A stretch of 64,000 nucleotides of DNA. Source: an uncultured Lachnospiraceae bacterium. Lineage in GTDB: Bacteria; Bacillota; Clostridia; Lachnospirales; Lachnospiraceae. The position numbers and the translations under genes were made by a program. Location of the stretch: assembly GCA_947168905.1 (NCBI GenBank), contig CAMVNR010000002.1, forward strand, positions 1,898-65,897, in the 5' to 3' direction. Within the stretch, counting starts at the first letter, position 1, and each line of letters starts with the position of its first letter. Positions 25,306 through 29,169 of this stretch are shown here, one piece after another. Under the pieces are notes generated by a model that saw only the letters and a program-made list of their open reading frames with translations, was not told the origin of the DNA and made no database searches.

Positions 25306-26787
25306 ATGTCCTGTACGACAATACTTGTCGGAAAATATGCCAGTTACGACGGCAGCACCATGATGGCCAGAAATGAGGATTCCGGCGCAGGAGAGTTCAC
25401 GCCGAAGAAATTTATCGTCGTTCACCCGGAGGATCAGCCCGTGCATTACCGCTCGGTGATTTCCAAAGTGGAAATTGATCTTCCGGTGGATCCGCTTCGC
25501 TACACCGCGGTCCCGAATGCTTTCCCGGAAGACGAAGGTATCTGGGGCGAGTGCGGTGTGAATGCGGCGAATGTGGCGATGTCCGAAACGGAAACCATCA
25601 CCTCGAATGTTCGTGTGCTGGCCGCCGATCCGCTGGTCAAAACAGGCATCGGCGAGGAGGACTTCCTGACGATTGTCCTGCCCTATATCCGCTCGGCGCG
25701 TGAGGGCGTAAAGCGTCTCGGCGCGCTCCTCGAAGCCTACGGTACCTATGAAATGAACGGGATCGGCTTCCAGGATTTTGATGAGATCTGGTGGATGGAG
25801 ACGATCGGCGGGCATCACTGGATCGCCCGGCGGGTACCGGATGAGTGTTATGCGGTGATTCCGAACCAGCTTGGCATCGATACGCTGAACCTTCGGGACG
25901 CATTCGGCTCTGAGCAGGATTTCATGTGCTCTTCCGACCTGATTTCTTTTATCCGGGACAACCACCTGGATCTTCGGATGGATGAGGACGGCGAAGAAAC
26001 CGACCTTTCCTATGAGACGGATTTTGACGTGCGTGCGGCATTCGGCTCGCATTCCGATTCGGATCACAGTTATAATACGCCCCGCGCCTGGATTATGGAA
26101 CGCCGCCTGAATCCGAAAACTTTTGTCTGGGACGGCCCGGAAGCGGATTTTCGGCCGGATTCGGACGATCTTCCGTGGTGTCTGGTTCCTGAGCACAAAG
26201 TCACGGTGGAGGACATCAAATACGTACTCTCTTCGCATTTTCAGGGAACGGCCTATGACCCCTACGGCAAATACGGCGATCTGTCCGAGCGGGGAAGATT
26301 CCGTCCGATCGCGGTCAACCGCACGAATTTTGCCGGCCTGACGCAGCTTAGGCCCTATATGCCTGGCCGCTTTGCGGCCCTTCAGTGGATCGCAATGGGC
26401 TCGAATGTTTTCAACAGCTTCGTACCATTTTACACGAACATCACGAAAACACCTGCCTATTTTTCGGACACGCAGCGCACGGTTTCTACGGACAGCTTCT
26501 ACTGGACGAACCGTCTGATCGGGGCGCTTGCGGACCCGCATTTTTCGGACTGTCAGGCTTCCGTTGAACGTTATCAGCTGCAGCTTCCTGCGAAATGCAC
26601 CCGCCTCATCAGGGAGACGGATGAGGAACTCCTCACTGAGGCCCCGGCCGACCTCCAGGCTTACCTCGAGGACAGGAATCAGGCGATCGCAGACCTCGTA
26701 CGCGAGGAGACGGACCGTCTCCTCTCATCCGTGCTCTACACCGCGAGCCTCGGCATGAAGAACGGCTACTCCCGCTCCGACGCCTGA
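25306..26787 (+). CDS. C69 family dipeptidase
   Basis: N-terminal nucleophile context MSCTTILVGKYASYDGSTMMARNEDS. Size and remaining sequence are typical of peptidase C69. Confidence 0.9.
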   Translation: MSCTTILVGKYASYDGSTMMARNEDSGAGEFTPKKFIVVHPEDQPVHYRSVISKVEIDLPVDPLRYTAVPNAFPEDEGIWGECGVNAANVAMSETETITSNVRVLAADPLVKTGIGEEDFLTIVLPYIRSAREGVKRLGALLEAYGTYEMNGIGFQDFDEIWWMETIGGHHWIARRVPDECYAVIPNQLGIDTLNLRDAFGSEQDFMCSSDLISFIRDNHLDLRMDEDGEETDLSYETDFDVRAAFGSHSDSDHSYNTPRAWIMERRLNPKTFVWDGPEADFRPDSDDLPWCLVPEHKVTVEDIKYVLSSHFQGTAYDPYGKYGDLSERGRFRPIAVNRTNFAGLTQLRPYMPGRFAALQWIAMGSNVFNSFVPFYTNITKTPAYFSDTQRTVSTDSFYWTNRLIGALADPHFSDCQASVERYQLQLPAKCTRLIRETDEELLTEAPADLQAYLEDRNQAIADLVREETDRLLSSVLYTASLGMKNGYSRSDA

Positions 26788-26802
26788 CCGCCCGCCCCGA
26801 AA

Positions 26803-27663
26803 AGCCGCCGCATTCTCTCCCGCAGTACCCCCTGGCCCCTCCCGCTGCGGCCGACTCTTTTTGCCCCGGCCCTCTGCCAGTCTTCCCGCCGGACGATCAT
26901 CCCCGGCAATTAACCGATACAACCCGCCCGGAGGCCTCCGCCCCCGGGCATCTTATTGTCTGCAGGCTTTTTCTGGTCGGGAGTATTTTCCGCATTGCCT
27001 TTTCGGGTTTTGGCTGCCTTTCTCACTAAAGCTCCCGCGGCACGTACGTCTAAAGGATTTTTGCGCGCCTCTTGCGGTGAACTCGCGCTGAGCGCGGAAG
27101 AAACACGATCACGGCGCCATTTTGATGGAAGTGGTATGGACTTATGGTGTTTCACAAGCGGTTTGCGGGAGCGGCACAAATGGAAGCCCGGCTTTTTCCG
27201 GCCCCGGGCTGTGCAGAATTGTCCGAGCGAGTATAAAGAAACACGGCGAGCGCCGTGTTTCTACCTCGCTCGACGCGAGTTTTCTGCACTCGGGGCCAAA
27301 AAGCCGGAAGCTTCCGTGCCGCGGGAGCTTGAGCGGTGAAACACCATAAGTCCATACCATTTGTACACAGATCTCTGCCGTGATCGTGTTTCTTTTTATG
27401 CGCTCAGACAGCACGCAAGGGATCGGCGCGCAATAATCCAAGACGTAGGGTGCCGCTCGACGCAAATCGTTCGAAAGGCAGTCCAAAATCCGAAGCGGCA
27501 AATCGACAGCTGATCCGACCAGAAAAAGCCGCCTTCAAAAAACCCGGGGGCGGAGGCCTCCGGGCGGAAAACTTTTGGATGACTGCCGGGGATGACGGCC
27601 CGGCGGGGAAGAGAGAGTGCAGCGGGGGAGTCAGGTGCCGGGGCGGGAGAGGATGCGGCGGGC
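26803..27663. repeat. Long diverged inverted duplication (imperfect palindrome) centred at 27249/27250
   Basis: The left arm aligns with the reverse complement of the right arm. Perfect blocks are 26924-26948 with 27543-27567 (25 nt) and 27133-27155 with 27336-27358 (23 nt). The central hairpin is gaaacacggcg-ag-cgccgtgtttc (27238-27261). The outer ends are homologous to the last codons of the CDS at 27631-27663. Confidence 0.85.
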
Positions 27664-29169
27664 GACGTTCGCGCCGTTGCCGATGACGGGAGCCATGCCA
27701 TCGCCGCCGGCGCCGTGGGCTCCGGTGAAGTAGAGGCCGGAGATGAATTCCTCGGCTTCGGGGGTCATTGTGCGGGCGACCGTGTGGTCGCGCATCGAGT
27801 GGCTGTAACCGTAGACGCCGCCGTAGGGGGAGCCGACGTAACGGGCGAAGGTCATCGGAGTCTCGATGACAATTTCCGCGATATGGTCCGAGAGCGGTAC
27901 GCCGAGGGCTTCGCTCATGTCGTCGATGAGTTCCTTCGCAAGCTCGTGGCGGACGAGGTCATAATTGTCCGCCGTTACGGACTGCCAGGCCTCCACCCGG
28001 GGCATCATCGTGACACTGAAGGAAGTATAGCCCTCAGGGGTTGCGGATGGATTCGCGTTATTGAGGCAGATCGAGGCGGTGGTACGGCTTCCGCGCAGGT
28101 CTTTCAGCTCGGCGAAGAGCTCATCCGAATTCATGTGCGCAGCGTGAAACCAGCAGTAATCCTGAAGGTGCAGCGCTTCTTTTGGCTGATCGAGAATCAG
28201 AATTACCGAGAAGGCTGTCAGGTTCATCCGGCGGGAATGGACCATTTGAAGGGCTTCTCTCGGAACTTCCGAGGCGGGTTCGATCATCGACTGATAGACC
28301 CGCGTCGGATAGGCGCCCGAGACGACGATGTCTGAATGGATTTCGTCGCCGCGCGCCGTGCGTACGCCCGTTACCCGGCCGTTTTGGACCAGGATCTTTT
28401 CGACTTTCTGGCGGTATTCGATCTGAACGCCAAGCGATTCAGCGCGCTCGGCGAGCTTCAGGCTCATCTCGTGACTCGTCTTCTTCGGAATGTACGCTCC
28501 GTGGCCGATATATTCATTCATGACAACCGAGTAGACCGTGAAAGGAAGGTCCGATAAAGGAGCGCCCACATAAATCCAGTAGGGGGACAGAATCTCGCGG
28601 ACCTTTTCCGGGAGATGAAAGGCTTCCATCACTTCGCCTGCCGAATAGCCAAGCGTACGGACAAATGGCAGGTGATGGCGCAGAATATGCAGCACATTTT
28701 TCATTTCTTCCTGGAGCGTCGTCGCGCTTTCCGAGCAGATCCGGCAGAAATCCAGGAATTCGAGCACCTGCTTTCGGGAGCCGGGGCAGACCTCTTCAAT
28801 CTCGGATGCAAAAGTGTCAAATCCGGGGTGAAAAGTCCTGTCAAGGTGCGGCAGGCACAGATGGTAGGCGTCCGGTACCGGGAGCCAGTCGACGAAAACC
28901 CCGTGCTTTTCGAGGAGCTTTCGAATCCTTCTGGGCTCATCCTTAGAGCCGATTTCCATCATTTCATGCAGAGCGGCTTCCATTTCGAAGCCGCCCCGGA
29001 CAAAGCTGGTGGCAATCCCGCCGGGCAGGTTGTGCTGCTCGAGAATCAGTACCGACTTTCCCGCTTCTGCCAGTGAAATGGCGAGCGTCAGGCCGGCGAG
29101 AGCGCCGCCGATCAGGATCGCGTCATAATGTTCTTTATAATAGTTCAATGGTTTTCCCTTCAGCAACAT
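27631..29169 (-). CDS. FAD/NAD(P)-dependent oxidoreductase, phytoene desaturase (CrtI)-like family
   Basis: N-terminal dinucleotide-binding motif DAILIGGALAGLTLAISLAEAGKSVLILEQHNLPGG. The ~510-aa length and C-terminal GAHGAGGDG segment are typical of CrtI-like flavoproteins. Confidence 0.8.
   Translation of the reverse strand: MLLKGKPLNYYKEHYDAILIGGALAGLTLAISLAEAGKSVLILEQHNLPGGIATSFVRGGFEMEAALHEMMEIGSKDEPRRIRKLLEKHGVFVDWLPVPDAYHLCLPHLDRTFHPGFDTFASEIEEVCPGSRKQVLEFLDFCRICSESATTLQEEMKNVLHILRHHLPFVRTLGYSAGEVMEAFHLPEKVREILSPYWIYVGAPLSDLPFTVYSVVMNEYIGHGAYIPKKTSHEMSLKLAERAESLGVQIEYRQKVEKILVQNGRVTGVRTARGDEIHSDIVVSGAYPTRVYQSMIEPASEVPREALQMVHSRRMNLTAFSVILILDQPKEALHLQDYCWFHAAHMNSDELFAELKDLRGSRTTASICLNNANPSATPEGYTSFSVTMMPRVEAWQSVTADNYDLVRHELAKELIDDMSEALGVPLSDHIAEIVIETPMTFARYVGSPYGGVYGYSHSMRDHTVARTMTPEAEEFISGLYFTGAHGAGGDGMAPVIGNGANVARRILSRPGT

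Follow-up and report, generated by a model that had tools for sequence, protein, structure and literature searches.

The stretch of DNA analysed here, referred to below as the window, comprises 64,000 nt (positions 1,898 to 65,897 of contig CAMVNR010000002.1, assembly GCA_947168905.1) of an uncultured Lachnospiraceae bacterium, whose genome (G000) is a fragmented metagenome-assembled genome (MAG) of 154 contigs; plain coordinates refer to the window, C-numbers are contigs, and G008, G015 and G005 are congeneric genomes (G8C80, for example, denotes contig C80 of G008). Our subject is the complete 843-bp spacer (26788-27630) between two convergent genes, a peptidase family C69 dipeptidase on the plus strand (25306-26787, 493 aa; PF03577, E 1e-171) and a CrtI-like FAD-dependent oxidoreductase on the minus strand (27631-29169, 512 aa; PF01593 Amino_oxidase over the whole length). 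The C terminus of the C69 protein is intact (..YSRSDA*) and ends like that of its orthologue in G015 (L024). The spacer between the two genes is occupied by a large imperfect palindrome, which is a member of a family of non-coding repeats present at unrelated loci in this genome and in one congener.

An initial annotation, made from the letters of the sequence, had described a palindrome of ~860 bp with perfectly conserved islands of 25 and 23 nt and with arms meeting at a central hairpin, and all of these features were recovered. A repeat search of the window returned 16 inverted pairs, co-linear over 26805-27661, among which is every block that the annotation had quoted. The 25-nt pair (26924-26948 and 27543-27567) is 100% identical, the 23-nt block lies inside a 27-nt pair at 96% identity (27129-27155 and 27336-27362), and the other perfect pairs measure 18 nt (27098-27115 and 27377-27394) and 16 nt (26965-26980 and 27515-27530); the 25- and 23-nt blocks each occur at two places in the window and nowhere else in it, and no shuffled sequence contained two matches. 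At the centre the arms come within 2 nt of each other, between the halves of a 12-nt pair (27237-27248 and 27251-27262). Pairwise alignment of 26788-27249 with the reverse complement of 27250-27680 was co-linear throughout, and a self-BLAST of the genome gave 70.5% identity between the arms over 780 alignment columns (window 26881-27612, 732 nt). Folded back as single-stranded DNA, the whole region reaches -316 kcal/mol, compared with -177 ± 7 kcal/mol for shuffled sequences (z = -19).

Module architecture and copies at other loci

The core of the palindrome (~27008-27487) consists of four modules of ~90 nt and of two types, A and B, each type with one outer (o) and one inner (i) module, in the order Ao - link - Bi - centre - Ai(rc) - link'(rc) - Bo(rc), where rc marks the reverse complement. 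All four modules point at the centre and each A-type module faces a B-type module, the left arm reading A, B and the right arm B, A from the outside in. Both types extend for ~75 nt up to AAGAAACACG and then enter a hairpin; the type A head is ..CTAAAGCTCCCGC-GGCAC, with an extra AACTCGCG before GAGCG, and the type B head is ..CGATTTGCGGGAGC-GGCAC. On the plus strand, the core terminus GGCTGCCTTTC (27012-27022) is followed by Ao (27023-27108; head TCACTAAAGCTCCCGCGGCAC), by the link (27098-27155), an imperfect hairpin (z -2.6) with the perfect blocks 27098-27115 and 27129-27155 around a loop unlike that of link', and by Bi (27156-27246; head GGTTTGCGGGAGCGGCAC). The centre (27224-27275; CGAGCGAG..AGAAACACGGCG-AG-CGCCGTGTTTCT..CTCGCTCG) is a strong bidirectional terminator-like hairpin, which folds at -33 to -34 kcal/mol on either strand (-33 and -34 kcal/mol, with z of -5.3 and -5.8, respectively). 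The right arm, on the minus strand, is made up of Ai (27253-27335), link' (27336-27394), which mirrors the link except in its loop, and Bo (27384-27473; head CGATTTGCGTCGAGCGGCAC), and closes with the second core terminus (27474-27484).

Modules of the window resemble their counterparts at other loci far more than they resemble the modules that they face. Ao is 92% identical to the Ao module of the C150 copy and 91-92% identical to those of G008; Bi is 92% identical to C150 Bi and 87% to C33 Bi, Ai is 89% identical to C33 Ai, and Bo is 83-84% identical to the Bo modules of G008. In contrast, facing modules within the window are 67-69% identical (Ai with Bi, 67%; Bo with Ao, 69%), and orthologous coding DNA of G000 and G008 is 71-79% identical. 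Plan and polarity are the same in every long copy (window, C33, G8C80 and the assembled part of C150). Viewed as a possible invertible DNA switch (inverton), the interior has one and the same orientation, Ao being next to Bi, in all four copies that show it. Shorter variants are G8C89 (Ao-hairpin-Bo, ~250 nt) and G8C64, which has an internal deletion. Because the plan is fixed and every A faces a B, the arms must have differed already when the element multiplied and are not decayed twins. Comparison of the copies presents the patchwork within the core as parts common to A and B (link stems and module ends) interspersed with segments peculiar to one type and with free loops, a mosaic inherited by all copies. 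The link hints at some homogenisation within the locus as well, as the two arms of the window agree against C150 at four or five positions. The same comparison disposes of a possible covariation that had been noted between GCTCCCGC...GCGGGAGC in one arm and GAGCG...CGCTC in the other: these segments are the heads of the two module types, which come in swapped order in the two arms, and in G008 the GCTCCCGC/GCGGGAGC 8-mers carry changes that break the pairing (two mismatches), none of them compensating.

Family members were sought in G000 and 16 congeneric species by homology to the left arm and with a sequence-only covariance model of the ~100-nt module, built from 18 modules, and with the model also in 400 further Lachnospiraceae genera (one genome each). 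The left arm identified four loci in G000 (window, C33, C150 and C87, the last two at contig ends) and three in G008 (contigs C80/C7, C64/C41 and C89, four of which carry their copies at contig ends), confirming that the arms have homologues both at other G000 loci and in another species. The covariance model matched 11 modules in each of these two genomes, and no module in the other 15 congeners or in the genomes of the 400 other genera. Collections of plasmids, phages and viral contigs (IMG/VR) held nothing similar, one match (L193) being a chance match in coding DNA. A metagenome scan with the B-head pattern returned at least 120 loci; among the matches listed there is one true copy (L159), a short copy from a strain of G008 that is 98.3% identical and co-linear on an independent metagenome contig. 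Look-ups by exact protein match brought up no strain variant of the window locus.

Copy numbers in MAGs are lower bounds, as short-read assembly seems to break at palindrome centres or near-identical modules. The C150 contig starts (L010 1-30) 24 nt past the centre hairpin of its copy; the partner arms of the C150 and C87 copies are absent from the assembly, and complete copies number only two or three. At two G008 loci (C7 and C41; L027 1034-1119 and L028 1026-1111) the outer A modules are 99% identical within unrelated flanks, which suggests recent copying or inter-locus gene conversion in G008, and all four G008 contigs concerned break inside this near-identical outer-A stretch. The two complete family copies are the two largest palindromes of G000 in the genome self-BLAST. 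Separately, the next largest (C91:6052-6435 and C92:3426-3679) belong to a second, unrelated family of small palindromic repeats, the arms of which (TTCCGGGTCCCTTCG ... GCCGAATCCCGGAA) surround an A/T-flanked terminator hairpin; C91 carries two inverted copies.

At orthologous sites of related genomes the element is missing. G015 (L024) has the C69 and CrtI-like genes convergent and 53 nt apart, with one bidirectional terminator between them; the site of the G8C41/C64 copy corresponds to a 68-nt terminator in G000:C3; and the C33 copy, which sits between a methyltransferase and an aldo/keto reductase gene, has as its empty counterpart a spacer of ~70 nt with one hairpin in both G008 and G015. 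Since the orthologous sites hold single short terminators, insertion is more parsimonious than repeated loss, and we infer that the element has been mobile, although its absence in relatives may also reflect excision that restored a single hairpin. The element occupies the place where relatives have only the short bidirectional terminator of convergent genes. No gene is common to the flanks of these loci.

Mirrored flanks and terminator-like hairpins

Outside the core, the two arms are mirror images of a different kind. The left rim (26803-26884, plus strand) begins 15 nt after the C69 stop codon, beyond a short spacer (26788-26802), and is a locus-specific mirror of 27608-27663 that includes relic CrtI codons, (S)RRILSR, at 26803-26823 (0 of 1000 shuffles). 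Its source is the right rim (27568-27663, minus strand), in which the last 10 codons of the CrtI-like gene (RRILSRPGT) are followed by its stop codon (27631-27633) and 3' untranslated region (UTR). Alignment of 26804-26847 with the reverse complement of 27620-27663 scored 36, compared with a mean of 17 and a maximum of 30 for shuffled sequences, a score that none of 1000 shuffles reached; the match CCGCCGCAT[T/C]CTCTCCCGC covers 18 of 19 positions and translates as SRRILSR in the left rim, compared with ARRILSR in the gene. The coding remnant recognised in the initial annotation is therefore real. CrtI-like orthologues in G015 and G005 end AKRILGK* and AQRILEKAGKNRH, and the window protein ends ARRILSRPGT; from these C termini it follows that RRIL is native to the gene, and their differing ends indicate that the tail after RIL, which overlaps the rim of the palindrome, is free to vary. 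RRILSR was also considered as a terminus of the element and rejected, as its similarity to the outer end of the C87 copy is not significant (reached by 16 and 24 of 300 shuffles) and RRIL is kept in the orthologues.

The sequence from stop codon to core is locus-specific and yet mirrored at every locus. Alignment scores were compared with those of shuffled sequences for the window, C33, G8C80 against G8C7, G8C64 against G8C41, and G8C89; no shuffle reached the observed score, and cross-locus control comparisons were not significant. At C33 the mirror extends through the reductase stop codon. Within the window, the block that adjoins the left hairpin on its outside (26885-26923, plus strand; CCCGCCGGACGATCATCCCCGGCA..) is mirrored by 27568-27607 (81%) and is weakly similar to the equivalent position of the G8C80 copy (1 of 300 shuffles). 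Between hairpin and core lie 26963-27022 on the plus strand, including the 16-nt block 26965-26980, and its mirror 27474-27528 on the minus strand, including 27515-27530. These hairpin-to-core spacers are 72-76% alike within a locus and 53-66% alike between loci, and conservation falls sharply at the core boundary. Patchy gene conversion, which had been put forward as an alternative explanation of the conserved blocks, thus agrees with the outer arms, but not with the mosaic of the core, which belongs to the inherited architecture of the family.

At the window locus native coding sequence was copied from right to left. Template switching has been documented to homogenise and expand the arms of inverted repeats (PMC8604942, PMC13100816, PMC7202029, PMC8794818). 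If strands fold back or switch template across the palindrome while DNA is replicated or repaired, such copying would homogenise the arms and extend the palindrome outward; here it would have placed the CrtI 3' end on the left side and halted with 15 nt left before the C69 stop codon, beyond which continued copying would have destroyed that gene.

Terminator-like hairpins lie between each flanking gene and the core. T_L (26924-26962, plus strand; hairpin 26924-26948 and a weak U-rich tail; -19.7 kcal/mol, z -2.5) faces the C69 gene, and T_R (27529-27567, minus strand; hairpin 27543-27567, followed on the minus strand by TTTTTTGAAGG with a U6 run; -19.9 kcal/mol, z -2.1) faces the CrtI-like gene. 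Hairpins of this type, GCCCGGA(A)GG...CTCC...CCGGGC with a U-containing tail, flank the core on either side, at a distance of 100-107 nt, in the window, C33 and G8C80/C7, and the type of T_L itself recurs in the C33, G8C80 and G8C7 copies. In these four they are oriented to stop the incoming gene and fold better than shuffled sequences (z -1.4 to -4.6). From these folding predictions, the element most likely now supplies transcription termination for both genes; the core itself is probably silent DNA.

The single hairpin at the empty C33 sites of G008 and G015 (L195 1420-1494 and L194 1426-1494) is of the same type and shares the 12-mer CCCGCCCGGAGG with the T hairpins of the window. This resemblance of the window hairpins to the native terminator of the methyltransferase/aldo-keto reductase pair, which is present as a single copy at the empty sites of the two congeners, hints that the element captured that terminator, and suggests that the long form arose at that locus and took the captured flank with it as it spread. 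Stems of the form GCCCGG...CCGGGC are moderately common (24 observed against ~10 expected), and the likeness may also be due to convergence.

Competing explanations

A product encoded by the arms was not supported. The initial annotation had proposed that each arm specifies a structured 3'-UTR element or non-coding RNA, a view to which the following results lend no support. A scan of the region with Rfam 15 returned only a chance match to AbsR28, on the centre hairpin, at 24 bits against a gathering score of 50 and with 126 of the 180 model positions skipped; there is no tRNA or tmRNA in the region and no sigma-70-like promoter site on either strand. Each arm folds as RNA no better than shuffled sequences (z +0.87 and +0.46), single modules range from z -1.6 to +1.0 with no common fold, and RNAalifold found 0 consensus pairs in 18 aligned modules; on 6 arms it predicted 12 pairs, almost all of them invariant. 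A small open reading frame was rejected, as 1-nt indels between close copies shift every candidate frame, and the frame entered from the ATG within the 23-nt block is not the same in the window copy as in the C150 copy. Two candidate motifs were likewise discarded. For a sigma-54 promoter at the GGCAC heads, the spacing to a GC is off by one and is unconserved. The 8-mers TGTTTCAC (27148-27155) and GTGAAACA (27336-27343), at the inner ends of link and link', correspond to the two half-sites of the parS consensus of Firmicutes; separated by 180 bp and unconserved in the C150 and G008 copies, they form no parS site and their occurrence is probably coincidence.

The explanation that we consider probable is a modular, quasi-palindromic interspersed repeat, non-coding and of low copy number, of which the spacer represents one copy. 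It would be comparable to miniature inverted-repeat transposable elements (MITEs) and to SPRITE, would supply terminators and would have had its arms extended by template switching. Several observations weigh against it. No direct target-site duplication is visible, the flanks next to the core being inverted complements (window, G8C89, G8C41/C64), and genome BLAST and the covariance model give non-coding copies only, without an autonomous transposase-bearing parent. Copy number is low, at 3-4 loci per genome. Neither of two candidate transposases tracks the element among the congeners: Y1 genes (PF01797; IS200/IS605) occur in 7 of 17 congeners, namely both carriers and five without the element, with no element similarity near them, and IS110-type genes are present in G000 and absent in G008. 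The hairpin-to-core spacers are just 53-66% alike between loci, unlike the core modules; T_L has a poor U-tract; and termination is predicted by folding alone. Finally, conservation of the core beyond that of coding DNA (up to 92% compared with 71-79%) is left unexplained, in that purely selfish junk does not account for it and constraint, inter-locus conversion or recent transfer is needed, and the fixed A/B asymmetry remains an unexplained feature. A bolder version, in which the core is a new kind of self-propagating DNA that homes to the middle of terminator hairpins located between convergent genes, leaves no target-site duplication, is recognised by its fixed asymmetric fold-back rather than by its termini, grows by mirror-copying its flanks and carries a captured flank along, is in our judgement unlikely.

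Among the alternatives, somewhat more weight is due to a site that acts at the level of DNA, although we still regard it as rather unlikely. The conserved asymmetric palindrome would then be an active substrate, not passive junk, folded as a cruciform or as a hairpin that has fixed bubbles and recognised by a recombinase, a transposase or a nucleoid or replication protein. Such a role would account for the A/B asymmetry and the invariant GCGG-AC heads kept in all copies of both species, for the sharp drop in conservation at the core boundary and for the 99% identity of the Ao modules at two G008 loci, suggestive of recent copying or conversion. It finds no associated gene common to the loci, no candidate transposase family that co-varies with the element and no match in plasmids, phages or viral contigs, and common ancestry of the copies explains the asymmetry without function. 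A functional RNA, in which arm or module is a structured 3'-UTR element or a small RNA, for example as convergent small RNAs sharing the central bidirectional terminator, is quite improbable. Each module does end at a hairpin followed by a U-containing run, modules are more conserved than coding DNA between G000 and G008, and RNAalifold indicates a 9-bp stem specific to A-type modules; but the nine pairs of that stem never vary and are missing from single-sequence minimum-energy folds, the GCTCCCGC/GCGGGAGC 8-mer stem acquires its two mismatches in G008 uncompensated, terminator-like hairpins shield the core from both genes, the 1-nt indels exclude a conserved small open reading frame, and Rfam, promoter search, fold z-scores and module consensus pairs were all negative.

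Inverted duplication of the CrtI 3' end and its downstream sequence in situ, followed by decay in which patches were kept by selection or gene conversion, was the origin proposed initially. One part of it stands, in that the rim truly mirrors native CrtI codons, and arm similarity in the outer regions is indeed higher within the locus (72-76%) than between loci. The core does not fit, as its arms are built of different conserved module types: the left-arm modules are 91-92% identical to those of another contig and another species and 67-69% identical to the right arm, every long copy shows one and the same swap of module order between its arms, and the family occupies unrelated loci with empty orthologous sites. 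We hold this origin to be very doubtful. An assembly artefact, a palindromic chimera in the MAG, would be compatible with its fragmentation into 154 contigs and with the several copies at contig ends. The palindrome is imperfect, however, and lies inside a 67-kb contig between two intact genes whose convergent synteny is kept in G015; furthermore, the architecture recurs in an independent genome and an independent metagenome contig carries a short copy, co-linear and 98.3% identical, and hence an artefact is extremely improbable.

If the spacer is an interspersed repeat of the kind described, there are consequences for annotation: what seems to be a long 'decayed inverted duplication' between convergent genes can turn out to be a dispersed element, and module types in swapped order can mimic covariation between arms. 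The element would illustrate, by its predicted hairpins, how termination of two genes can pass to a palindromic repeat. It also shows arms that are kept similar within a locus while copies elsewhere diverge, and a few codons of a real gene written over the opposite flank. It may thereby provide a natural large-scale example of template-switch processes that have been documented so far mostly at tens of nt. Core conservation above that of coding DNA could point to recent transfer or to a function at the DNA level.

Comparison with known repeat systems

Quasipalindrome template-switch mutagenesis and inverted-repeat expansion account for the homogenised arms, the perfect patches and the mirror copy of a flank including coding sequence. 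Documented cases span tens of nt, whereas the mirrored rim here measures ~80-200 nt per arm and the putative switching would have taken place around a dispersed repeat. REPINs, reportedly doublets of REP sequences described by Bertels and Rainey in 2011, and BIMEs are comparable in forming hairpins from inverted pairs at gene ends, and a BIME is, like the present core, a mosaic of oriented units with linkers. REP units differ in being 20-40 nt long, present in hundreds of copies and linked to RAYT, in contrast to ~90-nt modules, 10-11 of them per genome (11 matches of the covariance model in each), and no specific linked Y1 transposase.

MITEs and Correia/NEMIS-type elements are likewise non-autonomous and non-coding, show presence/absence polymorphism at orthologous sites and can provide terminators. 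The present family agrees with them in having copies at unrelated loci (four in G000 and three in G008) with empty orthologous sites, and in its termini, (R)CTGTCYTTC ... GAARGACAG(Y), which are found at the core ends in all copies and are short and imperfect. It differs in its very low copy number, in lacking a visible target-site duplication or a parent insertion sequence with matching ends, and in having arms with conserved non-complementary segments and mirrored flanks. The SPRITE, BOX and RUP repeats of Streptococcus pneumoniae (Croucher et al. 2011, PMC3049150) are non-coding interspersed repeats sited after genes, of which SPRITE carries a hairpin resembling a Rho-independent terminator and BOX is modular. 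The GC-rich hairpins that face both flanking genes here, and are predicted to fold better than shuffled sequences, are a feature of the SPRITE kind. The likeness to SPRITE, drawn from its description, is one of functional analogy only, as host phylogeny and size differ. The pneumococcal repeats measure ~100-200 bp and occur in tens to more than 100 copies, compared with 0.25-0.85 kb and 3-4 loci per genome here, where a fixed four-module quasi-palindromic plan with mirrored flanks fills the gap from stop codon to stop codon. The element thus belongs to the known class of bacterial palindromic interspersed repeats, of which it is a new variant.

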